From a phage: DNA of 64,000 nt. The position numbers were made by a program, and so were the translations under genes. Below, in pieces: positions 1 to 47,883 of this stretch. Numbering within the stretch: position 1 is the first letter of the stretch; each line of letters opens with the position of its first letter. The DNA lies in sequence record PZ171032.1; one strand, written 5' to 3'. A model generated the notes under the pieces. It had not been told where the DNA came from. It did not search any database and saw only the letters and a list, made by a program, of their open reading frames with translations.

Positions 1-200
1 GGATCGTAAAGGACATTAAGGAGCCTTTTAGGGTAAAAGTTAAGAAGTTTTTTGATTCTAAGATTAACATACTTGCCGTTGTGCTAGGCGTAATTCAACT
101 TCTGTTAATTTTGCACTATCTTGAACTGTTGTTTAAGTAGTGTGCAATAAGGCACAAAGGATGTGCCATAACTAAATAAACTAAGAAAGAGGTAGAGAGA

Positions 201-548
201 ATGCCAAAGATTAAATCGATATTAATGTGGGTAGCTGTTGTAGCTTTTGTAGGATACTGGACTTGGGAAACTGAATTAAAAGATATTGGATATACCAGTC
301 TTGAGAACAAGGCGTGCATTGGCATAACCGATGCATTCAGGCAAAATGCTATGGATCACGAATGTGTCGATGCAGACATAGATGAGAAACTGTCTAAGGA
401 CAAAGACTTCTACCACGGGTATGCTTTGCTTGATAGTGGGGACACTGTAGAGTTCTGGTCGTGGTTCCGTAAAGATGGAACAATAAAAACAGCAGTAAAG
501 ATCTCTAACAAAGAGTTAATGCTGTTGCAGCAGAAGGAGGCTCAATGA
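201..548 (+). CDS. hypothetical small membrane protein (N-terminal TM helix)
   Basis: ORF with upstream AAGAGG RBS; hydrophobic N-terminus WVAVVAFVGYW; first gene of a co-directional array. Confidence 0.6.
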   Translation: MPKIKSILMWVAVVAFVGYWTWETELKDIGYTSLENKACIGITDAFRQNAMDHECVDADIDEKLSKDKDFYHGYALLDSGDTVEFWSWFRKDGTIKTAVKISNKELMLLQQKEAQ

Positions 549-832
549 TCTGGATATCCTATGCTGATGGCACCATGCTGTATACTGCAGGTACCAGATA
601 TGAAGTTCAGGAGAACGATAAAAAATTTATCGTAAGAACATTTGACAAGGACGACAACCTTTTGCTAGAATTAACTTACAAGGTTGGGGATGTATCTAGC
701 ATCCAATTGGATTGTGGTCATAAAGATAACCCCCTCAAAAAACCTGGAATAGGCAAGGCTTCAGAAGAACGTTTGTCTCGTATTGCAGAAAGCGTTTCTA
801 ACCAAAAACCCAAAAAGAGGACCAGAAAATGA
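545..832 (+). CDS. hypothetical protein
   Basis: ATGA stop/start overlap with upstream gene; no recognisable motif. Confidence 0.6.
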   Translation: MIWISYADGTMLYTAGTRYEVQENDKKFIVRTFDKDDNLLLELTYKVGDVSSIQLDCGHKDNPLKKPGIGKASEERLSRIAESVSNQKPKKRTRK

Positions 833-1029
833 GTGACAAAATTCTTAAATTTAATACCTACTACGAGAATGATTTGAACGATCTGTATTATATAGTGCGT
901 AGCGAAAACCCGAATGTAGTGCTGTTTTGCAGAGAACCTTTCAAAAGAGAGGAGATTGAATCTACCATGGATGTGGATCAGATTTCACACCTGCTGCTCC
1001 TTGGATCATTAAAAGAGGCAGTATTCTAA
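829..1029 (+). CDS. hypothetical protein
   Basis: ATGA stop/start coupling; no motif. Confidence 0.55.
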   Translation: MSDKILKFNTYYENDLNDLYYIVRSENPNVVLFCREPFKREEIESTMDVDQISHLLLLGSLKEAVF

Positions 1030-1048
1030 ACCAGGGTGGAGGGTTTTT

Positions 1049-1234
1049 ATGAAGCACTATTGTCTATCTGGTAGAATGGGTGCAGATTGTGATTGGGTTT
1101 TCTTAAAACTTGTCAGCATTCGAGAGTTCATCCCGGAGGAAGAGCAAGAAAGCGAGCTGATGTCATGGATCAACCATTACGGTAACACTTTTCGGCATGT
1201 TAAGGTGGAAGAGTTGCCAAGCGAGGCTGATTGA
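1049..1234 (+). CDS. hypothetical protein
   Basis: GGAGGG RBS upstream of ATG. Confidence 0.55.
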   Translation: MKHYCLSGRMGADCDWVFLKLVSIREFIPEEEQESELMSWINHYGNTFRHVKVEELPSEAD

Positions 1235-1236
1235 CT

Positions 1237-1326
1237 ATGATTGCATCAATATTAACGTTTATGGGCGGCGTGGCATTCGGATTCATTGTTTGCCTGTTTA
1301 TAGTGATTATGTCTATGCGAGGCTGA
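1237..1326 (+). CDS. tiny hydrophobic peptide (29 aa, MIASILTFMGGVAFGFIVCLFIVIMSMRG)
   Basis: short ORF exactly filling the gap between two genes; single predicted TM helix; below the track size cutoff. Confidence 0.3.
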   Translation: MIASILTFMGGVAFGFIVCLFIVIMSMRG

Positions 1327-1329
1327 ATT

Positions 1330-1626
1330 ATGAAACTTTTTGAGTGGTTTAAAAAGTTTAAATATAAAGCTGTAGCCATCGTGCCATGGTCCATTCAATG
1401 GGTGGACGATGAGGGATTACCAATTCCAGGTGATAAAGACACGGGATACTGGATCATGCTTGAAAACGGGTTTGGAAAGCGAAAATATACGTGCACAAAC
1501 TCTACTCGATCTGCACTTAATAGAGTGCCTGGTTACAAACTTATGGTTGTGTGGAAAATGTCAGGCGTGCCTCCAGCTAACGCTCAATTTCTTACTGACA
1601 ATCCAACCACGGTGGAGGGAGATTGA
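1330..1626 (+). CDS. hypothetical protein
   Basis: ORF in packed array. Confidence 0.6.
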   Translation: MKLFEWFKKFKYKAVAIVPWSIQWVDDEGLPIPGDKDTGYWIMLENGFGKRKYTCTNSTRSALNRVPGYKLMVVWKMSGVPPANAQFLTDNPTTVEGD

Positions 1627-1628
1627 CA

Positions 1629-1910
1629 ATGAAAAAGATTAACAGTGGTGAAGTTGAGTTTAAACTTGTCGGGAAAGGCACTTACTGGGAAGTTCGTCAA
1701 AAGGTATATTTGTTCGGTCTTATTCCCTATTGGTCTAAATTCTACTGGGGAGCTAACGAGTTGGGAAGATACGCCACCAAATCAATGGTACTTATTGGTA
1801 TAGCAGAGTACATTGCAGCCAGAGATAGGGTTGGAGACACTTATTACTATACTGCGGACGATATTCGTAACAGTGTTTACGTCCCACAACCACCTGATGG
1901 AGACCGTTGA
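1629..1910 (+). CDS. hypothetical protein
   Basis: track ORF starts at TTG 1623; in-frame ATG at 1629 preceded by GGAGGGAG. Confidence 0.6.
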   Translation: MKKINSGEVEFKLVGKGTYWEVRQKVYLFGLIPYWSKFYWGANELGRYATKSMVLIGIAEYIAARDRVGDTYYYTADDIRNSVYVPQPPDGDR

Positions 1911-2134
1911 TGAAAGTTAAAGTTTTAGATTCAAGCTTCTATATTGGTCAGGAGCCTTTAGTAGGAAAAGTGTTTACTGCTATCCCTAACGAAGATTACC
2001 CTGACCTTTTAAAAATAAAAGGAGCAGATCTTATTGCCGCTGGTGCATCTCAGGACTGCTTTGACAGTCAGTGGACCTACAACTTTGCCCTAGGCGAGGA
2101 TGTAGAGGTAGTGGAGGACGATCATGAAGGTTAA
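1910..2134 (+). CDS. hypothetical protein, small-gene paralogue family A
   Basis: N-terminus MKVKVLDSSFYIGQ is near-identical to the next gene (MKVKILDSNVYLGQ); C-terminal hydrophobic-V-V-E-D motif. Confidence 0.6.
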   Translation: MKVKVLDSSFYIGQEPLVGKVFTAIPNEDYPDLLKIKGADLIAAGASQDCFDSQWTYNFALGEDVEVVEDDHEG

Positions 2135-2378
2135 AATTCTTGATTCTAACGTCTACTTGGGACAATCCTTCCTGAAGGGAAAGGTCGTTCCTGCGGTATA
2201 CTTTGAAGGGTTGCCGTGGGATGATCCTGTGCGGCAACATCACAGTTATGTAGGCCACAACGTGGTGTTTATCTTGGGATCAGACCTGATCACCGCTGGT
2301 GCACCTGAATATTATTTCGGGGAAGAGTCCTATTATGCCTTTGGGGTAGGGTCAGATGCGGATATTGTAGAGCTGTGA
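2124..2378 (+). CDS. hypothetical protein, small-gene paralogue family A
   Basis: paralogue of 1910-2134; C-terminus YAFGVGSDADIVEL resembles FAFVVGSDVEVIEE of 4268-4600. Confidence 0.6.
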   Translation: MKVKILDSNVYLGQSFLKGKVVPAVYFEGLPWDDPVRQHHSYVGHNVVFILGSDLITAGAPEYYFGEESYYAFGVGSDADIVEL

Positions 2379-2390
2379 TGGGTAACCGTT

Positions 2391-2789
2391 GTGAAAAATA
2401 AACTGTTTAAAGTTACAATGAAAATTCGCGGAGCTTGGAGCGTAAAGCAAGGGCGTATTCCGGAATTTGAGAAAGACTTCTACGTAGTCTCCACCTCGGA
2501 GGAGGCTGCATGCTGGCAGGCTGGCTATGCCTATGCAAGAACCTGGTACGAAGGATACCAGACTGGGGGCTATGACGGAGAAATTATCAGCAAGGGTGTA
2601 GAAGAAATTAATGTGTTGACAAGTGAAAAAGTTTTTGTTATAGTGCATCCAGATTCCAGAGTGAAGCATTACTGGAATGCCAGAACAAAAACTTGGACAC
2701 CGTTTGCAGATTCTGCTACACCACTTTTAAACCAAAAAGCTCTTGACTCTGCCCCAAGCTATGGGGTTGTTGAAGAAAAGCTAAACTGA
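2391..2789 (+). CDS. hypothetical protein, paralogue family B
   Basis: shares VHPDSRVKHYWNARTKTWTP-type segment with 4600-4995 (RHPHSNIAYYWDVLNNEWTP); GTG start, uncertain. Confidence 0.6.
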   Translation: MKNKLFKVTMKIRGAWSVKQGRIPEFEKDFYVVSTSEEAACWQAGYAYARTWYEGYQTGGYDGEIISKGVEEINVLTSEKVFVIVHPDSRVKHYWNARTKTWTPFADSATPLLNQKALDSAPSYGVVEEKLN

Positions 2790-2806
2790 AACAGTGAGGT
2801 GTCACT

Positions 2807-3097
2807 ATGATGGATTTAGTTCTGAATATTGATAACGCAGGAGAGGTTAAAGACGATGGTGTAACAAGCATGGACCAACCATGCCCTGCCAAGATTGACT
2901 CAAAATGGACATATAAGTTTGACGGAGAGATCTTTGCAAATGATGAAAAGGTTGTAGATGCTGCAGCCATTTTGAACGCTCTAGGGTACGACCCTGTGAA
3001 TTCTTTGATCAAGGATCCTGTTGAGTTTGCAGAGTATGTTCGAAAAATGGCAGATCTTGCTGTAGATATTTTAGATACTATCGATAATAAGCTGTAA
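2807..3097 (+). CDS. hypothetical protein
   Basis: GAGGTG RBS upstream of ATG. Confidence 0.6.
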   Translation: MMDLVLNIDNAGEVKDDGVTSMDQPCPAKIDSKWTYKFDGEIFANDEKVVDAAAILNALGYDPVNSLIKDPVEFAEYVRKMADLAVDILDTIDNKL

Positions 3098-3103
3098 AAA
3101 CTG

Positions 3104-3132
3104 TTGACACAACGCTTCAGCTATAGTATTAT
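3104..3132 (+). promoter_or_regulatory. sigma70-type promoter (TTGACA-N17-TATTAT) followed by 5'UTR hairpin
   Basis: TTGACA and TATTAT with 17-nt spacer; inverted repeat AGAGAGA/TCTCTCT at about 3142-3167 before the AAGGAG RBS of the HPF-like gene. Confidence 0.6.
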
Positions 3133-3184
3133 TGTTTTCAAAGAGAGATGGTTGTTATTCTCTCTTCCTTAAAAGGAGCACGTT

Positions 3185-3502
3185 ATGCAAATTGAAATCA
3201 CTGGCAACGTAGAAATCACTGAAGGTATGGTGTCTTTCATTTCCCACAAAATGTCTAAGCTGGAGCGTTTGCACCCCTCTGCCAACTATGCACGTGTTAG
3301 TGTAAAAGTTGAAAATGATCACCAGGAAGTTATGGCGTTCATTTTTGACAATTCTGGAAAAGAAGTTATTGCCAAAGCTAAAGGCAGTGATGCTTACGAG
3401 GCAACTGACCGTATGGTAGATGTTGCAGCACGTCAGCTGGCTAAATGCGGTGGAAAGAAAGGTAAGGGGAAAGGCAAAGTAAAGATTGACTTTGGAGAAT
3501 GA
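3185..3502 (+). CDS. ribosome hibernation promoting factor / RaiA (YfiA) family homologue
   Basis: MQIEITGNVEITEGM...KLERL...ARVSVKVEN...GSDAYEATDRMVDVAARQLAK aligns along its length with bacterial HPF (MQLNITGNNVEITEAL...KLEQY...VYVVLKVEK...GQDMYAAIDGLIDKLARQLTK); lysine-rich C-terminal tail. Confidence 0.8.
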   Translation: MQIEITGNVEITEGMVSFISHKMSKLERLHPSANYARVSVKVENDHQEVMAFIFDNSGKEVIAKAKGSDAYEATDRMVDVAARQLAKCGGKKGKGKGKVKIDFGE

Positions 3503-3511
3503 GGTGCTACA

Positions 3512-3613
3512 ATGGGCGTGATTAAGAAATTAGTCCCAAATGTAGAGATTGCATGCTTTGAAATTATGTTTGCAATCGCAGTTGTAGTTAATGTGTTAGG
3601 TTACGGCTATTAA
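3512..3613 (+). CDS. tiny hydrophobic peptide (33 aa)
   Basis: GAGGTG RBS 6 nt upstream of ATG; fills intergenic gap; hydrophobic core FEIMFAIAVVVNVLGY. Confidence 0.3.
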   Translation: MGVIKKLVPNVEIACFEIMFAIAVVVNVLGYGY

Positions 3614-3639
3614 TATCAAATAATTGAGGAGACCTCTAA

Positions 3640-3909
3640 ATGAAAATTAAATTATTCAAAACTGAGCTGGCAGACAAAAATTGTGGTCTGGTTGAAGGCA
3701 TGATTGTTGAAGCACAACCAGTGGACTATATGAAGGTGGTTCGTGATGCCCTGGGTGAAGGTTTTGATCTGATGGAGCCAGCTCTGCGGGAAGATGTTAT
3801 CGAGATGGCTAAAAAGCACACACCTGAAGGTTTGGTGGTGTTTATTGCACCGGGTAACGGAGAAGAGTTGATTGTAACTCCTGATGTGTATGAGATTGTA
3901 GAGGAATAA
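3640..3909 (+). CDS. hypothetical protein (family A-like C-terminus)
   Basis: GAGGAGA RBS; C-terminus VTPDVYEIVEE resembles the family A C-terminal motif. Confidence 0.6.
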   Translation: MKIKLFKTELADKNCGLVEGMIVEAQPVDYMKVVRDALGEGFDLMEPALREDVIEMAKKHTPEGLVVFIAPGNGEELIVTPDVYEIVEE

Positions 3910-3999
3910 TCCTGCTTGTATTAGCATACTTCCTCGATAAGGAAGGTTTGTAATTATTTGTGGGAAAGGAATCCCATCTCTTACCAGAGGTGATACTAT

Positions 4000-4263
4000 A
4001 TGATTGTTTATTTTAAAACTTCAGGTGGATACCCTGATTCTCAAAGCTTGATCGGAAAAACGTGCACAGCATACTCACCTCTTGATGAGGAGGTAAGCGA
4101 TATTCTACGAAATATGTATCGGATTGATCCCCAAGAAGCTTTTGATCAAAACCTTGTATTTGTCAAAGGCTCAGACATGAAGTCTTTGGGAGCATTCCCT
4201 GAAGCAGATGATGATGCCGTTTATTCGTTCATGACCCCTTTTGAAGCTATGGTTGTTGGGTGA
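4000..4263 (+). CDS. hypothetical protein
   Basis: GAGGTG RBS. Confidence 0.6.
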   Translation: MIVYFKTSGGYPDSQSLIGKTCTAYSPLDEEVSDILRNMYRIDPQEAFDQNLVFVKGSDMKSLGAFPEADDDAVYSFMTPFEAMVVG

Positions 4264-4267
4264 TAAT

Positions 4268-4600
4268 ATGAAAGTACGCTTTATTGGTGAAACAATTCCT
4301 GTGCATCTCCGGTCGCCTGAAGATTCTGCGGATCTTGCATCTCAGAAGGCGAGAGGTTATGATAAGAAAGTAATCTCAACCGATGTAGAACTTGAGGCTA
4401 CTAGTCTACCTGACCCTGCTGCATTCTTTAATCATTATGGATACTATTTCAGCAATCTGATGAATATCGGTGAGCTTGTGTTTATTAGTGGTGGAGAAAT
4501 TGTTAGCAAGCTTGGCGGAGATCCGGATGTCTTTCATGAAACCTGTCCTTTTGCATTTGTGGTGGGTTCGGATGTGGAAGTTATTGAGGAGGTGCAGTAA
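4268..4600 (+). CDS. hypothetical protein, paralogue family A
   Basis: track ORF starts at TTG 4241 overlapping upstream gene; ATG at 4268 follows upstream stop; C-terminus FAFVVGSDVEVIEEVQ. Confidence 0.6.
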   Translation: MKVRFIGETIPVHLRSPEDSADLASQKARGYDKKVISTDVELEATSLPDPAAFFNHYGYYFSNLMNIGELVFISGGEIVSKLGGDPDVFHETCPFAFVVGSDVEVIEEVQ

Positions 4601-4995
4601 TGGTAAGCCTATACCGTGTTGAGTATAGCTCAGATACTGTATACAACGTAAGAAGCAAAGATCGCAGCGACAGAGTGCAAGAAATGTATGTTCTTGCCGA
4701 CAGTCCGTTATCTGCAGCGTTCAAGGCAGGGGCTCTTGCATCTCGTTGGAAATTTGAAGGCGGATCTTTCTATGAAGAAACCCTTGAAGATTCTGTTGTT
4801 ATTTCTTCTGTAGAGGTTTCAGATGACTACGAAGGGAAAAAGTTCGTAATGCGGCACCCACACAGCAACATTGCGTACTACTGGGATGTTCTGAACAACG
4901 AGTGGACCCCAGATCTTCAGAAGGCCACTGTGCTAACACCGTTTTTGGCAGATAAGTTCCCACCAGAAGGTAATTTATCCGCACTGTTTCAGTAA
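4600..4995 (+). CDS. hypothetical protein, paralogue family B
   Basis: paralogue of 2391-2789; start overlaps upstream stop. Confidence 0.6.
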   Translation: MVSLYRVEYSSDTVYNVRSKDRSDRVQEMYVLADSPLSAAFKAGALASRWKFEGGSFYEETLEDSVVISSVEVSDDYEGKKFVMRHPHSNIAYYWDVLNNEWTPDLQKATVLTPFLADKFPPEGNLSALFQ

Positions 4996-5013
4996 TTTTC
5001 TTGCACACAGGTG

Positions 5014-5042
5014 TTGACAACACCAACCCTGTGTGAAATAAT
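5014..5042 (+). promoter_or_regulatory. sigma70-type promoter (TTGACA-N17-AATAAT) nested in an inverted repeat
   Basis: TTGACA and AATAAT with 17-nt spacer; flanked by 8-bp inverted repeat CACACAGG / CCTGTGTG (about 5004-5035), operator-like. Confidence 0.55.
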
Positions 5043-5074
5043 ACCTTCATCTTAACAAGACGGGAGACTGATTG

Positions 5075-5332
5075 ATGAAGATTAAACTGAAAAACCTTGA
5101 AATGGCAGAGATTCAGAATGGTGTTGATTTCCGCTCTAAAGATGGTGACATCTTAGAGGTAAATCTTCCAACCTACGAGCTGATTAAAGGTTTTGGCAAC
5201 GTTCAGGAAGAGGATATTCCAGAAATTCTTATGATGTTGATTCTTGACGGAACTGTGTTTGTAGGTGAAGGTGAGAACGCTATTGCAATCCCAGGCCATT
5301 TTTATGAAGTAGTTGACGAAGAGGTGCTGTAA
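5075..5332 (+). CDS. hypothetical protein (family A-like C-terminus)
   Basis: ATG at 5075 preceded by GGGAGA; C-terminus FYEVVDEEVL. Confidence 0.6.
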   Translation: MKIKLKNLEMAEIQNGVDFRSKDGDILEVNLPTYELIKGFGNVQEEDIPEILMMLILDGTVFVGEGENAIAIPGHFYEVVDEEVL

Positions 5333-5683
5333 ATGAAAGTAGAAATTACTGGTTTTGATGTTAGTGTGGTTCCGGAAGATATTTTAGCTAAACTCCCGGA
5401 AGGTTTTGGTAACGGTGTTGTGGTGGATGCTGTTCCTCCTACTAAAGACATTCTGCTGCAGTATGGTGTAGCAGAGGAAGATGTCGATAAAGTTCTTACA
5501 ATGATGGCAATCGATCGTGTTGTCGTTGTTAAAGGTCTCGATAATTTTGAGAGTGATCCTCTGATTATTCGCGGGGATGACTATAAAATCATCGATAATG
5601 AAGGCCAAGAGTTCTATGAGCCTTGTGCAGAAGATATTCTTAACTTATTACTGGAAGCAGGCACCGAAGAGGAGGACGAATAA
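5333..5683 (+). CDS. hypothetical acidic protein
   Basis: start immediately after upstream stop; acidic C-terminus. Confidence 0.6.
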   Translation: MKVEITGFDVSVVPEDILAKLPEGFGNGVVVDAVPPTKDILLQYGVAEEDVDKVLTMMAIDRVVVVKGLDNFESDPLIIRGDDYKIIDNEGQEFYEPCAEDILNLLLEAGTEEEDE

Positions 5684-6012
5684 TGAAGATTGACCCGTTA
5701 CTGAAGGCTCGTGCAGAAAAAGCGTACACCATTAAGCTGACCAACCTGGTTCCTACTTGTCATCCAGATGTAGGTTGGCCTGAAGGTCTGGTAGAGGGGA
5801 CTGTAACAGCTGCATACCTTCCTAACATCAAATACCTTATGGAAATCTTAGAGATGGATGAGGAAACTGCAGAACAGTTCCAGTTGGATATGAAACAGAG
5901 TGGGACTCTGGTTATTCACGGGTGGTATAATACTAAAGATGCAGAAGACCCTCTGGTAACTTCTAATCTGGCATATGAAATCTTAGGGCCTTTGAACCTG
6001 GAGGAAGACTAA
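5683..6012 (+). CDS. hypothetical protein
   Basis: ATGA overlap with upstream gene. Confidence 0.6.
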   Translation: MKIDPLLKARAEKAYTIKLTNLVPTCHPDVGWPEGLVEGTVTAAYLPNIKYLMEILEMDEETAEQFQLDMKQSGTLVIHGWYNTKDAEDPLVTSNLAYEILGPLNLEED

Positions 6013-6299
6013 TGAAAGATCTGGTTAAGATTAAGATTAAAGATACCAATGGGGAGCTCAGCCATTTTGGAATTAATGATGGTGACGAGCTGATCGCACA
6101 CCTGCCTACCAAGGAGGTTGTAAGCAAAGCAGTTGCCGGAGAAGAAGCTGCAATGCAGGCTGCAGGTGTGGATGAAAACTATGTAGCTATGTGCATGTGC
6201 CGAGATCAGGTTGTTCTGTATAAAGCGTATCGACCAAACGGAGCCACGGAGTGGCTTGTATTCCGACCCGAAGGATATGAAATCTTAGAGGCACTATGA
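6012..6299 (+). CDS. hypothetical protein
   Basis: ATGA overlap. Confidence 0.6.
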   Translation: MKDLVKIKIKDTNGELSHFGINDGDELIAHLPTKEVVSKAVAGEEAAMQAAGVDENYVAMCMCRDQVVLYKAYRPNGATEWLVFRPEGYEILEAL

Positions 6300-6379
6300 T
6301 AAATCTTGCCAAGGTTGCAACGGCACTGTTAATTATTTGCTGGTCAGTAACCTTAACACTGTGTCTTGTATTTCAGTGA
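6296..6379 (+). CDS. tiny hydrophobic peptide (27 aa)
   Basis: ATGA overlap with upstream stop; predicted single TM segment LLIICWSVTLTLCLV. Confidence 0.25.
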   Translation: MINLAKVATALLIICWSVTLTLCLVFQ

Positions 6380-6388
6380 GGTGCTTGT

Positions 6389-6652
6389 ATGAACATCCTG
6401 ATGTGGGTTATAGCAGTGGCGTTTGTTGCATGTTTTTGCTGCTGGGTTGTGGTGAGGATTTCTGTAGCTACCCTTCGGAAGTTGGGGTTCTCAGAATGGG
6501 ATATTAATATCCTTTCTTTTCGCAATGAAACAATCTCAGCCGCCCTGCTTTGTAAGAAATTTAAGTGGGAACCTTGTGAGGTCATGAGCTATCTAAGAAC
6601 AGGCGATATCCCTGAAAGATTTAAAAAAGTTCTTGACGGCAAGGATAAATGA
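6389..6652 (+). CDS. hypothetical membrane protein
   Basis: GTGAGGTG RBS; N-terminal TM helix WVIAVAFVACFCCWVVV. Confidence 0.6.
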   Translation: MNILMWVIAVAFVACFCCWVVVRISVATLRKLGFSEWDINILSFRNETISAALLCKKFKWEPCEVMSYLRTGDIPERFKKVLDGKDK

Positions 6653-6680
6653 CAGTATAGTGACTAACAAGAGGTGAGGG

Positions 6681-6821
6681 GTGACTGATTTTACTGAAGC
6701 TTTAATGATGGCCTTGTCTGTTTTAGCGCTATCGGTGTGTTTTGGGGCGTTATTCACATCTCTGGTTAAAGTTTTACATACAGTATTATTACCCAAGGGG
6801 CGCAGTAATGACGAAGATTGA
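6681..6821 (+). CDS. small hydrophobic protein (about 46 aa; GTG start, may start at internal ATG)
   Basis: GAGGTGAGGG RBS then GTG; TM-like LMMALSVLALSVCFGALF; overlaps next gene start. Confidence 0.3.
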   Translation: MTDFTEALMMALSVLALSVCFGALFTSLVKVLHTVLLPKGRSNDED

Positions 6822-7059
6822 CTTGAATGCTGGCGATCATGTTGTTGTCAAATGCATTGGAGATTATCTTGGATTCACAATCGGCAATACTTACGAGGCG
6901 ATAGTGGCGAAGGTTTATCATGATAAAGTCCTCAGTCTTGTATTTGACTGCGATGATGATGGGGATGACCGATACGTCTGTGAGGTGCTGGCACGAGACG
7001 ATAGTGAAGACCAGAAATTTCTGGTTATTGAACTGAACGGTATTTTTGTAGAACGTTAA
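6808..7059 (+). CDS. hypothetical acidic protein
   Basis: track ORF starts at 6742 (non-ATG); first ATG at 6808 (MTKIDLNAG). Confidence 0.6.
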   Translation: MTKIDLNAGDHVVVKCIGDYLGFTIGNTYEAIVAKVYHDKVLSLVFDCDDDGDDRYVCEVLARDDSEDQKFLVIELNGIFVER

Positions 7060-7087
7060 TTTAAAACAACATAAGGAGACTCTTACT

Positions 7088-7393
7088 ATGGCTAAATCTA
7101 AAGTTGAACTGTTCACCTCTCTTCCTTCTGACACTGCAGAGCGTGATCGCCTTCGCAAAACAATCGAAGAACTGGTGGAACTCCAACTTCAGATTAAAGA
7201 TCTGAAAGATGCCATTAAGGATATCATTCTCGTTGAGAAGCAGGATCATCTGTATTCTCCTAAATTCATCAAATCTTTGGTGGCTACAGAGTTTGATATC
7301 CGCTACGAAGCTGAAAAACGTCGCGCTAAGATTGAAGAAGAGGTTGAGCACATGTCTGAGGCAGACATTCTGTTCAAACGCTCTGTAGAATAA
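7088..7393 (+). CDS. hypothetical protein (charged, helical-looking)
   Basis: AAGGAGA RBS; charged helical composition. Confidence 0.6.
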   Translation: MAKSKVELFTSLPSDTAERDRLRKTIEELVELQLQIKDLKDAIKDIILVEKQDHLYSPKFIKSLVATEFDIRYEAEKRRAKIEEEVEHMSEADILFKRSVE

Positions 7394-7398
7394 TATGG

Positions 7399-7428
7399 CA
7401 GAGGGGCTACGGCCCCTCTTTCACTATT
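7399..7428 (+). terminator. rho-independent terminator-like hairpin
   Basis: GAGGGGC-TACG-GCCCCTC stem-loop followed by a T-rich tract, directly after the stop of 7088-7393. Confidence 0.5.
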
Positions 7429-7445
7429 TGCAAAAGGAACCAGCT

Positions 7446-7772
7446 ATGAGAATGCCAATCACTGTGAAAGAGCTAAATGAACGTGATGCAGGTGGTCTAT
7501 GGCCTGCACGAAAAATCCGCTGCGTCTATATGAAAGAGAATCTTGAACACCTTGATCAACAGATCAAGGTCGGTGATATTTTCGAGGTCTTCTATTCCAA
7601 TCGTCGCAACTGGGAAACCATTCAGCCTTCTGGTTTTGTTCTTGCCAAACTTGACACTGGAGAAGTGATTATCCCTGGGTTGGATATTGTCTTCGAAATT
7701 ATCCAGGAGTGGGATCCGGATAAGATTAGATACGAAGAATTATTCGGTAAAGGTATTATCAAACCTGTGTGA
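7446..7772 (+). CDS. hypothetical protein
   Basis: track ORF starts inside the hairpin at 7395; in-frame ATG at 7446 (MRMPITVKE) lies after the hairpin. Confidence 0.6.
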   Translation: MRMPITVKELNERDAGGLWPARKIRCVYMKENLEHLDQQIKVGDIFEVFYSNRRNWETIQPSGFVLAKLDTGEVIIPGLDIVFEIIQEWDPDKIRYEELFGKGIIKPV

Positions 7773-7780
7773 GGTGGATT

Positions 7781-8080
7781 ATGTCTACAAAGGCAGCTAA
7801 ATACTCTTATATGCCATCAACCTCTGCAGAGGTAGACTTTAGTTTCGATGTATTTCCACTGTTTGAGGTGGTTCTGGCATACCCTACAATACTATCTACA
7901 CCTGAATCACTTGTGCCTGTTAAGTTGCAGAACGCTATGCATTCCATGCACTACAACAATAAATGTAGGCACAGATGGTGTCAGGACGAGGAAAAAGATT
8001 TGGATAGTTTGAGGGATTTTGACAGTCACCTTTTGACACCTTTTAGCTACTCCAATCTTGATAAGCCCTCTTGGGTATAG
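7781..8080 (+). CDS. hypothetical protein
   Basis: track start GTG 7769; ATG at 7781 preceded by GTGAGGTG. Confidence 0.55.
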   Translation: MSTKAAKYSYMPSTSAEVDFSFDVFPLFEVVLAYPTILSTPESLVPVKLQNAMHSMHYNNKCRHRWCQDEEKDLDSLRDFDSHLLTPFSYSNLDKPSWV

Positions 8081-8293
8081 CAAAATATCAAATTTAAGAC
8101 ACCTAGGACGCTCTGTGGCGTCCTTTTCTTTATCTGGTGCACGATTGCATACCTTTGACAGATAATCTCATTACAGAGCGTTTAAGAGCTTCCTACAAAC
8201 AAATCTCTCTTTCGAGCGTAGCGAGAACGCACGTCCGTTTTGACCCAAATCACCATACGCTCGGATTTTAACCAAACCCTCGCGGCGTTTCTG

Positions 8294-8990: not shown

Positions 8991-10489
8991 CACACAATAT
9001 TAGATGTCCGGCTAAAGTGCTGGAAGCACCTATAGCATATCTTTCAACTAAATTTCCTACCACCACAATCACTTACCTCCCACACATGACTGTTTGCTTG
9101 TTTAGTGAGCAGTCATGCCTTGACATTCTTGCCTATCCTGATAAAATTAAGTTCTTCTCTTTTCTTTTACCGAGTAATTCGGGTTTTCTGTTCTCTTCGG
9201 TTTGAAGGGGTATGGAGATACACCTGAGTGAACAGGGTGAACAACCGAACATTCGGCTATGGCATTAGCATGGCGAAGCGAACGGGTGACGAAAGAGGGG
9301 CCGGAGGACACCAGTCACTGCCATATGATATATGGGTGATAACCTGAAGAGTCTGAATAAGTGTTTAAGTACCAGTCAGAGGAAAAGGTGAATGGTAGCC
9401 GAAGGGGGAGGGGGGGTTTCTTGTATCTTTAATTTGTATATTATGTATACACTTGTAAACCAATTTCATCTGAATCTGTTTACCATACAAAGTGGATTGA
9501 GACAAATATTACCTATTAAACTTGAATTATTTATAGAAAATACCACAACACACCTTAAGTCTTTGATTTTACACATAAATCCTACAGATATTCAACCTCC
9601 ATATTTAACATACTTGTAACATATCCTATACCACACCTGCCTGATCAATTTCCCCAACTACATCCTCTATATTTTACCTGCCTGTACTACCCCTGCCCCG
9701 CCGGGAGTCCCGTCATATCTGGCTTTCCAGCAAATATCCCACCAACAAATATCATTGCCTGAAGAGGGTTTCATCCCATAATACATGCCTTATCTGAAGA
9801 GCGCTTCATACACCACGTAAATTTTTTAATTGACCCCTCCCCGCCGCCGGAGAGGTTGGCTTTTCCCACACAGACCTGAAGAGTCAGCCAGAAATATCTG
9901 AATAGGCCCAATTCTACCACGATTTTGACCTGACCTACAGGGAGGCCCGAAGGGTCTAGCTTTCAGCTAGAGTCCTTGCAGGACCTACAGGAGTGCTGCC
10001 AGGCGGACGGAATGGGAATACTTCTCATTTTTATAATAATTCTCAAATATCGAGGCAGTGAGGCAAATTAATAGGTGAGGCCGTTCACACAGTGGCACAA
10101 CATTTGCAACCTATCTTGTGTGGGGGAATGATAATACCTATCATTGTGAGAACCATTATCATTACGGGCAATTTAACATAATACCCATTATGCGCACCAC
10201 TGGCGATACATACAGGGATTGATAACATGAGTTACAGTTTACGCATATAACAATTATATTTCTTATCATTTGTGTGGGATATAGTTAGCAGCCAATAGAT
10301 TAGATATTGACCTGCATACTTCCAACCGTCTAGACGTCTAAACGCCCACACACCAAGGATTATACATACACTCCTGAATGTAAACAGGGCCGCAAAAATG
10401 CTACCATACAAGCTTGTAAATTTTTCATGCAGCACTTGACAAAGAGGAGAAAAACTTGTCTGACATAATGTGACCTAACTGACACAACA

Positions 10490-10590
10490 TGACACTTTTA
10501 CACACCTATTAGTTTACACACTGGATTGTTTACATTCCTGATTGTTCACATGCTAACCATTTACATGATTGACTGTTTACACACCGATAA
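10490..10590. repeat. iteron-like array of short direct repeats (TTTACACAC / TTTACAT, about 15-bp period)
   Basis: at least six copies of TTTACA(C/T) words spaced about 14-16 bp apart within 100 bp of ORF-free DNA. Confidence 0.5.
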
Positions 10591-10593
10591 TCA

Positions 10594-10613
10594 GCCATGC
10601 CATTCGTTTGCAT
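10594..10613. repeat. 20-bp direct repeat GCCATGCCATTCGTTTGCAT, copy 1
   Basis: exact 20-mer repeated at about 10825-10844. Confidence 0.6.
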
Positions 10614-10656
10614 GACAATAATTATACATGACAATAATCGCACTGATTATAATTAG

Positions 10657-10722
10657 CATGACATAATATAAAAGCAGGGCAACTATTAGCAGATCTATAG
10701 TTGCCCTGCTTGTTATGTCATG
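10657..10722. repeat. long imperfect palindrome (perfect 15-bp arms AAGCAGGGCAACTAT / ATAGTTGCCCTGCTT, extended by CATGACATAA arms)
   Basis: reverse-complementary arms around a 9-nt centre, seen directly in the sequence. Confidence 0.6.
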
Positions 10723-10824
10723 ATTAACTAAATACAAGGCAACTATGATCTGATTAATAGTTTGCAGACAAACTATCACGGGGGTGATGGTTACTGCTTT
10801 TATATTATGTCGCGACTCCGTCGC

Positions 10825-10844
10825 GCCATGCCATTCGTTTGCAT
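10825..10844. repeat. 20-bp direct repeat GCCATGCCATTCGTTTGCAT, copy 2
   Basis: exact copy of 10594-10613; preceded by palindromic GTCGCGAC. Confidence 0.6.
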
Positions 10845-11461
10845 AGTTGCCTTATTGTTACAGGTAAAATAATTACATTATTAATTATTTCTTATCTTTC
10901 TCTTAGTCATCTAATGATTCCAGTCAGTATAGTAATGTACAGTAAACATTAGACGACTAAATATTTCTATGCTTATGATAACTTGCCGTGACAATTTCGG
11001 ACTGTTTACGAAAAATGTTGACACCTGGGCGGGTTTATGTTATGCAGTTTACACGAATAATTATTTCATACAGGTATTGACTATTCCGTTATTCTGTGGT
11101 TGGAATAAATACTTTGCAGGCTATAGAATGGTGTGCGTACGTGAATTCTAAGATCTGGCGGCTATAGTTACACCCGATTTTTCACGTAGAACACGCTTTT
11201 TGGTTTGTGTAAGTGTATGACTTATAAAGATTTTTAGTTGTTGACAGGATATTGAAGATGTGCATCAGGTTAAATTTTGTGCAATAGCTGCAGTACGTGC
11301 ATTTTTGGAAGGAAAAACGTGTAAAAATGGTCCTGCTACCACATAATGAAAGATTATGCAATAGCTATTTTATATGTATATTTGTACAGTGTGTGGGATT
11401 GATGGCTCGTCAATTATTCCACTTGCTGGGTGGGGCCGTTTGTGGTAGGAGGAGAGCAGAC

Positions 11462-11486
11462 AAAAAGAAAGGGGCCTAAGCCCCTT
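11462..11486 (-). terminator. rho-independent terminator (minus strand)
   Basis: minus-strand hairpin AGGGGC-TTAG-GCCCCT followed by a T-run, just past the stop of gene ending at 11506. Confidence 0.5.
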
Positions 11487-11505
11487 GATAATGTAAATTG
11501 TTGTA

Positions 11506-11770
11506 TTATTTGTTACTCATCCAGTTTTCCCAAGCTGCCTGATAATCTGCCTCACTGCGGCGGATCTCTTCTTGTTCTTCAAGCCGGATCTCTTCTTCCA
11601 GGTACCCCAAGATATCGGCTTTTTTTGGTCTGGCGTAACATCCAATCATCTTTTTTACGGGTAAAGATCTTATATGCTTTCTCGCAAACCTCTTTTTTGC
11701 TACCTTTTTGGACTTCAAGAACTTTGTAGGCCATGTACTGAACTAGTTTGAGCTGATCAAGACGTTTCAT
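11506..11770 (-). CDS. hypothetical protein, apparently interrupted by a frameshift at a homopolymeric A tract
   Basis: two overlapping track ORFs (11579-11770 and 11506-11718) in different frames; frame switch coincides with an A7 run; fused product would be about 88 aa. Confidence 0.4.
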
Positions 11771-11833
11771 GATGTTTACCTCTTTATGGGGTTCTGGTTT
11801 GGTGTGGGCCTTTTGGCCCGTGTCATTATCTTA

Positions 11834-12106
11834 TTACTTACGGCGGCAAAATTCAAGTGTTTTTAATTGATAATCTTCCTCAGCTTGGAGTACAACCGCC
11901 TCGATCATTTCGTTGGCATTGGTGAAGCCATACCCTTGAGCGAACTCATCCGCGCCACCTTCGTGATCATGTTCTGCGTTCATCGCTTCCACAAAATGGA
12001 ATTCAAGATTGTTGAGGTAAGGGCTTGATGTTCCGTCCTCTTTTTCGATGAGATCCCAGATAGCATTAAAACGTGATTCGACTTCTTGATTAATCCAGCT
12101 TGACAT
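11834..12106 (-). CDS. hypothetical acidic protein
   Basis: ORF with compact spacing; no motif. Confidence 0.6.
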   Translation of the reverse strand: MSSWINQEVESRFNAIWDLIEKEDGTSSPYLNNLEFHFVEAMNAEHDHEGGADEFAQGYGFTNANEMIEAVVLQAEEDYQLKTLEFCRRK

Positions 12107-24081: not shown

Positions 24082-24336
24082 TTAATGTTCAGGTTTTACA
24101 AAAACGACTTCATTAACAGTGCACCAGACAGAGTCTCCTTCATCATCTTTAAAGGTAAGGCACTGTGCTGAGTTTTCCAGCTCATCGATCTCTTCTTGTG
24201 ATAAAGGGGCCCCTTCTTCCAGAAGGGCTTTTACCAGAGGGTTCTCACAAAACTCTGCTTCATAAATTGCACCGACTGTGCAATCTTTAAAAGCTCGGTC
24301 ATTTGCAACGCATTCTGGCTTCAAAGTAATTTTCAT
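24082..24336 (-). CDS. hypothetical protein, paralogue pair C
   Basis: paralogue of 23746-24018 (ERAFKDCTVGAIYEAEF vs DSAFRDCTADKVYTGTV). Confidence 0.55.
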   Translation of the reverse strand: MKITLKPECVANDRAFKDCTVGAIYEAEFCENPLVKALLEEGAPLSQEEIDELENSAQCLTFKDDEGDSVWCTVNEVVFVKPEH

Positions 24337-46858: not shown

Positions 46859-47122
46859 ATGGCAACAGAGTTAAAATTTGCATCAAACCGTAAAACTAAG
46901 AAGTATCTGTCCTCAGTAGCTCCAGGCACTGTGGTGATGTTTGTTGATGAACTTGGGGATGTGAATACAGCACTTGTTGTAAAATCACATCCTGCAAACA
47001 TATATGTTGGGGTATTTGACCTGTTCAGAAAGGTGTTTGTAGAACTGCCTCACAGTTTGGTTGTTACAGAAATGGATGCCTGCATAGAAATTCTTGGCGA
47101 AGTTATGGTGGAGGAACAATAA
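46859..47122 (+). CDS. hypothetical protein, tandem paralogue 1 of 4
   Basis: four consecutive about 87-aa ORFs with shared pattern (K..GTVV...D.......V...ELD..I.ILGE). Confidence 0.6.
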   Translation: MATELKFASNRKTKKYLSSVAPGTVVMFVDELGDVNTALVVKSHPANIYVGVFDLFRKVFVELPHSLVVTEMDACIEILGEVMVEEQ

Positions 47123-47385
47123 TGGCTACCAGCATTGTATTCAATTCTAAGGTGAAGAACAAAAAGCGTGCAGACAGTTTTCCGTGTGGGACCGTGGTAA
47201 GTTGCGACGGAGACGGCATTCAAAACATAGTTATGATTGTCAAAACAGGAGAACATTGTGTGTGGGGGTTCGATTTAGAAAATAATGAGTTGTACGATCT
47301 GCCGCCAAACATGAAAGTTACAGAGCTTGACACCAAAATTACCATCCTTGGAGAGACAAGCTATTCAAAAGAAGGAGGAGAATAA
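47122..47385 (+). CDS. hypothetical protein, tandem paralogue 2 of 4
   Basis: paralogue; ATGA overlap. Confidence 0.6.
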   Translation: MATSIVFNSKVKNKKRADSFPCGTVVSCDGDGIQNIVMIVKTGEHCVWGFDLENNELYDLPPNMKVTELDTKITILGETSYSKEGGE

Positions 47386-47648
47386 TGACCACAAAAATCA
47401 CTATCGCAGAACCGAAAGCTAACACTCAGCCTATCGAAAAGTTTAAGTGCGGTGAGGTGGTAACATTCACACCAGATAATGAAGATGCTAAGATTTTCGC
47501 AATGGTCACAGCTGAGTGGATGTGTGACAACACCACACAGGTTCTGCGTTTTGACACCTATCTTACCGATGAAATCAGGAACGACAAGATTGTGACTGGT
47601 GTGGATACTGAGATTGTTTTCTACAAGAGCTTTTTAGAGGGTTTCTGA
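47385..47648 (+). CDS. hypothetical protein, tandem paralogue 3 of 4
   Basis: paralogue; ATGA overlap. Confidence 0.6.
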   Translation: MTTKITIAEPKANTQPIEKFKCGEVVTFTPDNEDAKIFAMVTAEWMCDNTTQVLRFDTYLTDEIRNDKIVTGVDTEIVFYKSFLEGF

Positions 47649-47649
47649 T

Positions 47650-47883
47650 ATGGCAAAAATTAGAAAATTATCTAGCAATCAGGTTGTGAAAGACTTCGAA
47701 TCTGGAGAGATTCTTTATGTTCGTGATGCAGATGACGAAGGTGAAGATCTCGTTATGTTGGTGGGGCACGCTGAGGACGGATGCATCCAAGCTGTTTTTC
47801 TTGAAACAGCTATGGTGCACTGGATAGAGCTGGACCTGAAAGCACGAAAACCTAAAGCAGAAATCCTGATTTACGAAGATTAA
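47650..47883 (+). CDS. hypothetical protein, tandem paralogue 4 of 4
   Basis: paralogue, more divergent. Confidence 0.55.
   Translation: MAKIRKLSSNQVVKDFESGEILYVRDADDEGEDLVMLVGHAEDGCIQAVFLETAMVHWIELDLKARKPKAEILIYED

Follow-up and report, generated by a model that had tools for sequence, protein, structure and literature searches.

Ancient paralogue families in an accessory-gene cluster of a Vequintavirus and a candidate module for host-specific infection

The 64,000-nucleotide stretch of phage DNA analyzed in this study (record PZ171032.1; hereafter the window) comes from a Vequintavirus, an rV5-like myovirus infecting E. coli, and sequence comparison resolves small genes at positions 1910-6299 into three paralogue families (A, B, and C), with a membership unlike that proposed in an initial annotation of the same DNA. 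The best explanation of the combined results, given a probability of roughly 0.55, is that these are three ancient families restricted to rV5-like phages and that the second of two A-A-B gene triplets (4000-4268-4600) is a module lifting a strain-specific block to infection. Genes are named below by their start positions (Table 1).

Table 1. Family members and other features of the accessory-gene cluster (E, E-value of the leave-one-out HMM search).
Feature	Position	Strand	Description
Family A member 1	1910..2134	+	74 aa, net charge -10; rV5 gp135, bas54_0159; phrog_5009; E=5e-16
Family A member 2	2124..2378	+	84 aa; rV5 gp136, bas54_0158; phrog_5009; E=1e-19
Family A member 3	4000..4263	+	87 aa; bas54_0152, 100% identical; E=1.6e-6
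Family A member 4	4268..4600	+	110 aa; bas54_0151; E=3e-6
Family B member 1	2391..2789	+	132 aa; rV5 gp137, bas54_0157; phrog_7379
Family B member 2	4600..4995	+	131 aa; bas54_0150; phrog_7379
Family C member 1	3640..3909	+	89 aa, net charge -10; bas54_0153; E=2.9e-6
Family C member 2	5075..5332	+	85 aa; bas54_0149; E=9e-9
Family C member 3	5333..5683	+	116 aa, net charge -21, extra acidic tail; bas54_0148; E=1.3e-7
Family C member 4	5683..6012	+	109 aa; bas54_0147; E=7.9e-6
Family C member 5	6012..6299	+	95 aa; bas54_0146; E=1.3e-7
Ribosome hibernation factor (HPF/RaiA) homologue	3185..3502	+	inside cluster; annotated so in rV5 and Bas54
bas54_0140 orthologue	7769..8080	+	99% identical; last cluster gene; outside families A, B, and C
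Sigma70-like promoter	3104..3132	+	11/12 consensus match only; position of rV5 annotated promoter P144; upstream of HPF gene
Sigma70-like promoter	5014..5042	+	11/12 match, extended -10; position of rV5 promoter P150; precedes tandem C array
Intrinsic-terminator-like hairpin	8105..8124	+	ends plus-strand cluster; annotated in rV5 too

All of the open reading frames named in the initial annotation were present at the coordinates given, and the genes at 1910-6299 were found to lie within a dense plus-strand cluster of accessory genes. The order A-A-B occurs twice within it (1910-2124-2391 and 4000-4268-4600), with starts and stops that overlap or nearly abut; the overlap between 1910 and 2124 is 11 nt. 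The encoded proteins are small and soluble, and most carry a strong negative charge (net -6 to -21), with 2391 as the exception (+1). Early expression of the cluster would follow from the sigma70-like promoter matches only, and the total of promoter-like sites in the window did not exceed that in shuffled sequence (22 vs. 17.8+/-4.4); a search for a published Vequintavirus transcriptome returned none.

Family membership was evaluated with leave-one-out HMMs, in which the candidate's own orthologue group was removed from the model. Every member of the three families was recovered at E-values of 1e-19 to 8e-6, while the next-best open reading frame scored at least 0.015, and in profile-profile comparison (hhalign) the best 16 of 231 pairs were all within-family. 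Together with Smith-Waterman alignments, these results bear out the initial suggestion of repeated duplication of small genes. Within family A, the 1910/2124 pair scored far above shuffled sequences (z=21.5, P=6e-13) and remained significant after removal of 7 N-terminal and 12 C-terminal residues (P=3e-7). The next-best window open reading frame for this family scored at least 0.11. The family as first proposed also contained 4268, had 3640 and 5075 attached to it by their C-termini, and had missed 4000, which is linked to 1910 and 2124 by hhalign probabilities of 86-88% and to phrog_5009 at E=1e-4. For 4268, the membership holds through the C-terminal ~40 residues only (residues ~66-108): the pairwise signal was lost after a 12-residue trim (P=0.025 and 0.095), and profile comparison gave 95% and 90%. 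The two remaining genes were rejected as members of family A, with leave-one-out E-values of 1.6-3.7 for 3640 and no entry for 5075, and the family-level comparison of A with C gave a probability of 11% and a score of 21.6, the level of reversed-sequence controls (~22).

Family B was upheld with its original two members (2391 and 4600), which share an HP-x-S...W...W motif. The pair aligned at P=2e-11 (P=1e-9 after trimming of the ends) and at 98.8% hhalign probability over 123 columns, and leave-one-out searches gave E=3e-13 and 5e-15. Across four sequences, with identities as low as 23%, the core residues H86, P87, S89, W95, and W102 never vary, and the motif is also unchanged in relatives that are ~40% identical. 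Family C joins 3640 and 5075 to the genes at 5333, 5683, and 6012, with hhalign probabilities of 75-96% in six pairs: 3640 matched 5075 (95.7%) and 6012 (86.2%), 5075 reached 95.9% and aligned with 5333 at a pairwise P=1e-5, and 5333 matched 5683 (80.4%) and 6012 (84%). Divergent orthologues supply transitive links, as proteins from L002 and L003 each match two family C paralogues of the window simultaneously, the L003 protein bridging 5333 and 5683. The counterpart of 6012 in the rV5 reference is two separate open reading frames. Elsewhere in the window, the minus-strand pair 23746/24082 was confirmed as paralogous (P=4e-9), while the proposed tandem quartet at 46859-47883 reduced to one solid pair (46859/47122; P=2e-11, same PHROG) and two marginal genes (47385 and 47650; P~1e-3 to 1e-2, separate PHROGs).

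The Glu codons (GAG GAG or GAA GAG) in the tails of 1910, 4268, 5075, 5333, and 5683 constitute the ribosome-binding site of the next gene; therefore, the shared acidic V-E-E tails are largely attributable to embedded Shine-Dalgarno sequences of coupled downstream genes rather than to homology, and part of the hydrophobic-V-V-E-E tail arises as a by-product of coding. The MK(V/I)K start is generic, as 12 of 24 cluster genes start with MK. With the tails and starts accounted for in this way, and with the link of 3640/5075 to family A collapsing, all of the similarities might be read as chance or compositional artefacts among unrelated ORFans. The loss of signal upon trimming that such a reading entails was seen in the pairwise comparisons of 4268 and was absent for 1910/2124 and 2391/4600, where core similarities persist with both ends trimmed. 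Combined with the separation of members from all other open reading frames in the leave-one-out searches and the within-family ranking of the best profile pairs, this makes the artefact reading extremely improbable, and it is refuted for the three families in their revised membership.

The proteins of the three families belong over their full length to PHROGs (E 1e-32 to 1e-76), namely phrog_5009, phrog_7379, and the singletons 13920, 13661, 11868, 12359, 12155, 12457, and 12794, all labeled "unknown function". That resource already groups the closest A pair (1910 and 2124) and the B pair, but it distributes family A across three PHROGs and family C across five, which hides the wider families and the repeated A-A-B order. 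The rV5 genome paper makes no mention of paralogy in this cluster, and the family proteins are not named among the virion proteins that it lists from mass spectrometry. No match to families A, B, or C was found in Pfam, NCBIfam, or PDB sequences, and none outside rV5-like genomes among 5.8 billion proteins, where all matches were orthologues, mostly on 120-140 kb contigs; the exhaustive HMM search gained only two divergent orthologues, and tblastn against phages matched only ~117 Vequintavirus records.

The confident structure model for family A (2124; pLDDT 93.5) is a small beta-barrel with weak resemblance to SH3-like folds, as compared with PsaE, KOW/Spt5, OapB, KIN17, and the retroviral integrase C-terminal domain; the model for family B (pLDDT 53) was unusable. 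The first-ranked BFVD match to the 2124 model was a 73-aa protein of the Vequintavirus SYGMH1 (75% identical, TM 0.73-0.82). The same predicted fold was found over whole proteins of 65-99 aa (TM 0.63-0.74) in RB49 (Q76ZG7), Citrobacter phage Merlin, Shigella phages CM1 and Sf20, Cronobacter phage CS01, and Klebsiella phage ZCKP1, at 16-25% identity and thus undetectable by sequence. These proteins of other phages are uncharacterized, so no function can be transferred to family A.

The initial annotation regarded the paralogues as diversifying, which would imply an array of early genes that duplicate and diverge rapidly under an arms race and whose sequence and copy number change from one related phage to the next. 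Several observations are in keeping with this: multiple paralogues are present; at genus-to-genus distance, L003 is missing B1, and L002 is missing HPF, B2, the C member 5683, and four of five A members; and 2124 has undergone mosaic replacement in nomo and YP-6 (80% amino acid identity, dS~1). Additionally, family orthologues are 29-65% identical over long distances compared with 62-85% for core enzymes; however, other small hypothetical genes nearby diverge as fast. At the testable scale, the claim was unsupported. Of 121 phage records that matched, 116 keep the whole cluster at ≥90% identity, and the four annotated Vequintavirus genomes examined (rV5, nomo, YP-6, and MaxBurger), which include the most divergent ones found, do not differ in copy number or gene order. 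Pooled within-genus dN/dS was 0.11-0.15 for A, 0.02-0.12 for B, and 0.06-0.19 for C, at the level of neighboring genes (0.08-0.12), showing purifying selection on every family member. No DNA-level similarity between paralogues was detected beyond one 30-nt patch, and genus-level relatives already carry separate orthologues of the two B genes and of most members of A and C. By these comparisons, the duplications are older than the genus-level splits, and the genes are ancient, individually conserved paralogues rather than a fast-turnover array, which is a very unlikely description of the cluster.

Evidence for function comes from transposon insertions in phage Bas54 (HIDEN-SEQ Data S2/S7), comparing the clinical (uropathogenic) E. 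coli CFE311 with K-12 in one preprint and one competitive assay on a related phage, onto whose 94-100% identical orthologues the family genes were mapped (10.1101/2025.11.20.689424). Sheets S6 and S7 of the data carry the same numbers, so that one of the two host comparisons, that with CFE311, is covered here. On K-12, no family gene was essential: of the eleven, eight were classed "Non-essential" and three (bas54_0151, 0152, and 0153) "Intermediate". On CFE311, insertions fell to zero across the second triplet: from 142.2 in bas54_0152 (4000; log2FC -7.16), 71 in bas54_0151 (4268; -6.17), and 108.3 in bas54_0150 (4600; -6.77), all with adjP 0. Insertions in bas54_0157 (2391) were about fourfold fewer (log2FC -2.14, adjP 0), the change in bas54_0153 (3640; log2FC -2.78) was not significant, and bas54_0158, 0159, 0146-0149, 0166, and HPF were unchanged (10.1101/2025.11.20.689424). 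Family genes were over-represented among CFE311-depleted genes (4/12 vs. 17/217, Fisher P=0.016; P=0.054 with a conservative background). The requirement of the four genes on CFE311 is not discussed in the preprint (10.1101/2025.11.20.689424). Of the anti-defence or host-takeover role first suggested for the paralogues as a whole, a host-specific accessory role, plausibly anti-defence, is backed by experiment for the orthologues of 4000, 4268, 4600, and 2391, which are conditionally essential or depleted on CFE311; no such requirement was seen for 1910, 2124, 3640, or 5075-6299.

The depletion of three adjacent genes could also reflect a need for one of them on CFE311, most likely 4600, with insertions in the upstream A genes acting through disturbed downstream expression, in which case A and B would not have to cooperate. 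The 4-nt gap between 4000 and 4268 and the TAATG stop/start overlap between 4268 and 4600 make translational coupling across the triplet likely, and the other B gene, 2391, is the only depleted member of the first triplet, suggesting B as the active family. Local polarity inside bas54_0152-0151-0150 may contribute. Against polarity, bas54_0158 (12 nt ahead of 0157) and bas54_0141 (overlapping 0140) showed no loss of insertions although the genes directly downstream of them did, and the authors argue that polar effects are not widespread and report that insertions ahead of essential genes are usually tolerated (10.1101/2025.11.20.689424). A requirement for a single gene is considered unlikely.

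Alternatively, the families could be general host-takeover factors that reprogramme host translation, transcription, or metabolism and are host-dependent for physiological rather than immunity reasons. The hibernation factor homologue is embedded in the cluster, genus-wide conservation and purifying selection point to an accessory function of a housekeeping kind more than to an arms race, and control insertion counts were lower in bas54_0151, 0152, and 0153, those of the first two lying below their neighbors (10.1101/2025.11.20.689424); with the "Intermediate" classification on K-12, these counts may indicate a general fitness role of the block that is exaggerated in CFE311. However, HPF itself shows no host-specific requirement, and a drop from tolerated insertions to none on a single clinical strain is what the HIDEN-SEQ authors saw for validated anti-defence genes, including bas54_0140 of this cluster (10.1101/2025.11.20.689424). 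Host takeover is a rather unlikely explanation.

In Bas54, bas54_0140 and the MoxR ATPase bas54_0063 are anti-defence genes against DS-28 (10.1101/2025.11.20.689424). The former resembles the genes of the second triplet: it is small, has no recognized domain, is not needed on K-12, and drops out on CFE311 in that same assay, and it lies in the same plus-strand accessory cluster of the same genus. It is unrelated in sequence to the three families, and it has a validated cognate defence system, whereas the A-A-B genes are candidates from insertion data. T-even phages encode small anti-defence proteins as well, Arn and IPI among them. The same kind of screen yielded small T-even orphans, T4 nrdC.1 against Septu and bas37_0203 against Druantia III (10.1101/2025.11.20.689424). 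Like the A and B genes, these orphans are small, without known domains, dispensable on laboratory hosts, and needed only on particular hosts. They have no homology to A, B, or C and are single genes, whereas the phenotype described here is common to three neighboring genes drawn from two paralogue families, each of which has further copies in the genome.

Taken together, the preferred reading is that the family proteins would bind or inhibit host proteins stoichiometrically rather than work as enzymes, and that the second A-A-B triplet would be one co-expressed module, possibly a complex, lifting a strain-specific block to infection that is most likely an immunity system of CFE311. Of the CFE311 defence systems, only DS-28 and Gao_Tmn were cloned, and they were tested only with the 0063 and 0140 knock-outs (10.1101/2025.11.20.689424). 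The first triplet and the C array would then be diverged copies for other targets or hosts. The more specific proposal, that the coupled genes 4000-4268-4600, encoding two family A barrels and one family B protein, form a new multi-protein counter-defence module against CFE311 immunity, lacking homologues beyond rV5-like phages, and that the other triplet and the C genes are diverged modules, is tentative, with odds short of even. If true, the paralogue families of this phage would represent a stored repertoire of specificities. On the insertion data, families A, B, and C are good candidates for host-specific, probably counter-defence, factors.

The window derives from a Vequintavirus, an rV5-like E. 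coli myovirus, and its region 1500-6500 is 97-98% identical to DrSchubert, FFH2 and rV5 and is found at 90% identity or more in 116 of the 121 matching phage records. The rV5 counterparts, gp135-gp145, are annotated as hypothetical apart from the homologue of the ribosome hibernation factor HPF/RaiA at 3185-3502 (+). The plus-strand genes of the cluster are tightly packed; the features considered here, with genes named by their start coordinate, are collected in the table.

Features of the gene cluster, with the counterparts in phage Bas54 (MaxBurger) mapped by sequence at 94-100% identity
Feature	Position	Family	Bas54 gene	Last codons with next gene's Shine-Dalgarno sequence	Coincides with
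Gene	1910	A	bas54_0159	GTG GAG GAC	
Gene	2124	A	bas54_0158		
Gene (B1)	2391	B	bas54_0157		
Sigma70-like promoter	3104-3132				rV5 annotated P144
Gene	3640	C	bas54_0153		
Gene	4000	A	bas54_0152		
Gene	4268	A	bas54_0151	GAG GAG GTG	
Gene (B2)	4600	B	bas54_0150		
Sigma70-like promoter	5014-5042				rV5 annotated P150
Four tandem genes	5075-6299	C	bas54_0149-0146	5075: GAA GAG GTG; 5333: GAA GAG GAG GAC; 5683: CTG GAG GAA	
Gene	7769-8080	none of A, B, C	bas54_0140		
Terminator-like hairpin	8105-8124				

The 24 plus-strand genes of 1-8100 were translated and all 276 pairs were compared by Smith-Waterman alignment against shuffles. Five pairs passed Bonferroni correction (1910/2124, P=6e-13; 2391/4600, P=2e-11; 2124/4268, P=3e-6; 5075/5333, P=1e-5; 1910/4268, P=2e-5), and 3640/5075, 5333/6012, 2124/4000 and 5075/6012 narrowly missed it. 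With 7 N-terminal and 12 C-terminal residues cut off, the masking by which the initial annotation had proposed to refute its own families, the paralogy it had claimed held for 1910/2124 (3e-7) and 2391/4600 (1e-9), and 5075/5333 were still similar (P=1e-4). The likeness of 4268 to family A dropped to P=0.03-0.1 in these masked pairwise comparisons, whereas profile tests support its membership over the C-terminal ~40 residues only. For these tests, profiles were enriched with orthologues from database matches and from two genus-level relatives, the contigs L002 and L003. The best 16 of 231 profile pairs in hhalign all fell inside one of three groups, and a sharp gap separated them from the rest. 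Each orthologue group was then left out in turn and the resulting HMM was run against the 446 ORFs of the window; the best non-training match was in every case the member held out (family A, E=1e-19, 5e-16, 1.6e-6 and 3e-6; family B, 3e-13 and 5e-15; family C, 9e-9 to 8e-6), with the next-best ORF never below E=0.015.

By these sequence comparisons, family A comprises 1910, 2124, 4000 and 4268, family B comprises 2391 and 4600, and family C comprises 3640, 5075, 5333, 5683 and 6012. Gene 4000 had been overlooked initially, and Vequintavirus genomes have a fifth family A member (nomo_120 / bas54_0166) a short way upstream of where the window starts. Genes 3640 and 5075, initially described as relatives of family A, are reassigned to family C (hhalign score of A vs. 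C, 21.6; reversed-sequence controls, ~22). A superfamily joining A and C was likewise rejected, as per-gene and family-level hhalign did no better than these controls and homology is not demonstrable from sequence. Profile searches returned no further A, B or C members elsewhere in the window; 24082-24336 (-) matched family C only marginally (E=0.015) and was left out of it. That gene and 23746 do form the genuine paralogue pair originally proposed, on the minus strand (phrog_11936 / phrog_12544, cross-match ~1e-5). The paralogue quartet reported at 46859-47883 is reduced to 46859/47122 (P=2e-11, same PHROG), with 47385 and 47650 only marginally similar; phrog_10698 occurs twice within 46859-47385 (+).

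Two shorter likenesses were seen within the cluster region. The plus-strand genes 201-548 and 6389-6652 have a common hydrophobic N-terminal segment (ILMWVAVVAFV / ILMWVIAVAFV; 9/13 identical, hhalign 54% over 15 columns), and both products are likely to be small proteins held in the membrane by related anchors. Additionally, 1910-2134 and 2807-3097 (+) have a common motif, DSQWTYNF / DSKWTYKF (6/9 identical, hhalign 31-35% over 11 columns), which is too short for homology to be called.

Some of the features by which the families had first been recognized do not mark kinship. At the coupled junctions at 2124, 4600, 5333, 5683 and 6012, the last ~5 codons of the upstream gene (1910, 4268, 5075, 5333 and 5683) hold the downstream Shine-Dalgarno sequence in the GAG frame. 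The hydrophobic-V-V-E-E tails are therefore largely a coding by-product: as read from the nucleotide sequence, the GAG/GAA constraint from overlapping or abutting genes would largely account for what looks like a shared E-E or E-D protein motif. This explanation covers the five upstream genes and leaves the tails of 3640, 2124 and 6012 aside. The MK(V/I)K start taken as a mark of family A is generic, since MK opens 12 of the 24 genes. Chance or compositional similarity, to which such tails and starts lend some color, is refuted for the redefined families and is given a negligible probability.

The families are restricted in distribution. In 5.8 billion proteins, three profile searches found nothing but orthologues, which apart from fragments are at least 56% identical to their window gene and for the most part lie on 120-140 kb contigs and so in rV5-like genomes, and tblastn against a phage collection found ~117 Vequintavirus records and no others. 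With family B as the query, an HMM search run exhaustively over 1.84 billion representatives brought in two divergent proteins, on the metagenome contig L002 (139 kb) and on L003 (124 kb), whose core enzymes are 62-85% identical; no homologue beyond rV5-like orthologues was accepted from either collection, and three long repeat proteins in the family B search (P0088-P0090) were dismissed as repeat-sequence noise. L003 carries separate orthologues of all A and C members and of B2, without B1; L002 carries B1, four C members and the upstream A member, the HPF gene and the other A genes being absent. Therefore, the duplications are older than these splits. The near absence of DNA similarity among paralogues (one 30-nt patch) is consistent with old duplications.

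The A-A-B order occurs twice (1910-2124-2391 and 4000-4268-4600), which is suggestive of a duplicated three-gene block and is kept as a hypothesis; however, 1910 is closest to 2124, and 4000 and 4268 show no detectable likeness, a pattern unlike that of a simple block copy. Every family member is under purifying selection, with pooled dN/dS within the genus of 0.11-0.15 (A), 0.02-0.12 (B) and 0.06-0.19 (C) compared to 0.08-0.12 for neighbors. At greater evolutionary distance, identities are 29-65% among family orthologues, 62-85% among core enzymes and 45-59% among other small hypothetical genes nearby; the families thus diverge faster than enzymes, at a rate similar to that of nearby small hypothetical genes. 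The rapidly diversifying arms-race array initially proposed could draw on this faster divergence, but it is contradicted by the dN/dS values (0.02-0.19), by a gene order that is the same in rV5, nomo, YP-6 and MaxBurger and by duplications that predate genus-level splits; we regard it as improbable.

Several local rearrangements were observed alongside. Insertions and replacements have reshaped the cluster in L003 (8068-8358, 10467-10763) and L002 (13532-14644): an unrelated 96-aa ORF occupies the expected B1 position in the genus-level relatives, L003 has a PF27050 (Phage_P22_Y8K6) gene between B2 and the C array, and L002 has a TnpB/IS605 OrfB-like gene (PF01385, PF07282) within the cluster. 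In a protein from a 120.6 kb contig (P0083), the C-terminal part of B1 runs into the C-terminus of the gene that follows it (2807), the join falling in a brief stretch over which the two are alike (WTPFAD[SA]A...), and the match in EduardKellenberger (MZ501061) covers only 25% of 2391; some members of the genus thus have a truncated B1 or have lost it. In nomo and YP-6, 2124-2378 is only 80% identical (dS~1-1.4) between flanking genes at 92-100%, and 829-1029 is 67-68% identical there and 97% identical in the far more distant L003; these mosaic alleles point to recombinational allele exchange. The orthologue of 6012-6299 is annotated in rV5 as two overlapping short ORFs, gp148 and gp149 (7509-7721, 7645-7779), and is unbroken (95 aa) in the window, nomo, YP-6 and MaxBurger; the split is a frameshift or sequencing error in rV5. 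Further along the window, ~9000-11500 holds few ORFs between divergently oriented gene blocks and includes part of the G+C minimum (0.389 at 10001-12000); searches for tRNA, Rfam families and tandem repeats there found none, and the stretch may be an origin or regulatory locus.

Functional evidence comes from transposon-insertion sequencing of Bas54 (HIDEN-SEQ, 2025 preprint, doi 10.1101/2025.11.20.689424), i.e., from one preprint and one assay on an orthologous phage with one host comparison. On K-12, every family gene is classed as 'Non-essential' or 'Intermediate' (Data S2), with insertion tolerance already mildly lower for 0151 and 0152. On the clinical UPEC strain CFE311 vs. K-12, no insertions are left in 0152, 0151 and 0150 (log2FC -7.16, -6.17 and -6.77; adjusted P 0) and those in 0157 drop about fourfold (-2.14; adjusted P 0), 0153 changes non-significantly (-2.78), and 0158, 0159, 0166, the four tandem C genes and HPF do not change (Data S7). 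Family genes are overrepresented among the genes depleted on CFE311 (4/12 vs. 17/217; Fisher P=0.016; 0.054 with a conservative background). They are absent from the preprint text, its follow-up being limited to the MoxR ATPase bas54_0063 and bas54_0140, both required to overcome DS-28, a defence system of CFE311. The bas54_0140 orthologue (99% identical; phrog_12072, no known domains) is the last gene of the family cluster on the plus strand but is unrelated to the three families. Bas54_0123, 0126, 0127 and 0132-0134, small hypothetical runs past the ORF-poor region, are also significantly depleted on CFE311; therefore, the A-A-B block is not the sole undiscussed host-specific locus in Bas54. 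The 'resampling_K-12_vs_CFE303' data (Extended Data Table 8, Data S6) name the 311 library in the command line and carry the numbers of the CFE311 sheet (S7), so that the supplement as stored seems to lack the CFE303 comparison.

Combined, these results favor, at a probability of roughly 0.55, ancient, individually conserved accessory proteins that would act by binding host components, with the coupled 4000-4268-4600 triplet as a putative host-specific infection module, most likely for counter-defence, to which B1 may contribute. A binder or inhibitor mechanism, possibly as a complex, is proposed on the grounds of size, charge, coupling and fold. Net charge is -6 to -21 in 10 of 11 members (B1, +1). 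The AlphaFold model of 2124 (24 aligned sequences) is confident (pLDDT 93.5, pTM 0.84), predicting five strands and short helices that resemble predicted structures of small uncharacterised proteins of RB49, Merlin, Sf20, CS01 and others (TM 0.63-0.74). The AF2 model of family B is unreliable (pLDDT 53). The H-P-x-S...W...W core of this family does not vary among four sequences that are as little as 23% identical. Searched against Pfam, NCBIfam and PDB sequences, the families gave no meaningful match, and the virion proteins listed by mass spectrometry in the rV5 paper include none of them. General takeover factors, needed to a varying degree according to the physiology of the host, could produce the same K-12 vs. 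CFE311 difference and are an unlikely reading, though the leading one among the alternatives. Somewhat less likely still is that the B gene alone matters and that the A genes look required through local polarity: insertions in 0158 and 0141 persist while 0157 and 0140, directly downstream, are depleted (Data S7), so polarity seems limited, and the HIDEN-SEQ authors likewise argue against it.

In PHROGs, 1910 and 2124 already stand together, as do 2391 and 4600, and in kind the family genes are small orphan phage accessory or anti-defence genes. In the literature, no description was found of the families beyond these pairs, of family C, of the A-A-B order occurring twice, of ribosome-binding sites as the explanation of the tails or of the link to conditional essentiality, and searches on rV5 paralogues, transcriptomes and SH3-like small early proteins returned nothing relevant. 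Paralogy itself is ordinary; the value of this analysis lies in a concrete, testable lead to a new host-range or counter-defence determinant in the Vequintavirinae, which are therapeutic candidates with broad host range and ~two thirds of genes without known function. Eleven anonymous ORFs become three defined families, old and individually constrained; a misleading motif is removed, the acidic tails being largely ribosome-binding sites; and the families are tied to an existing, undiscussed signal, one A-A-B block being required on a clinical UPEC strain but not on K-12. This would be a case of same-family paralogues differing in host-specific requirement, and possibly also a lead to the bacterial system that the A-A-B block targets.
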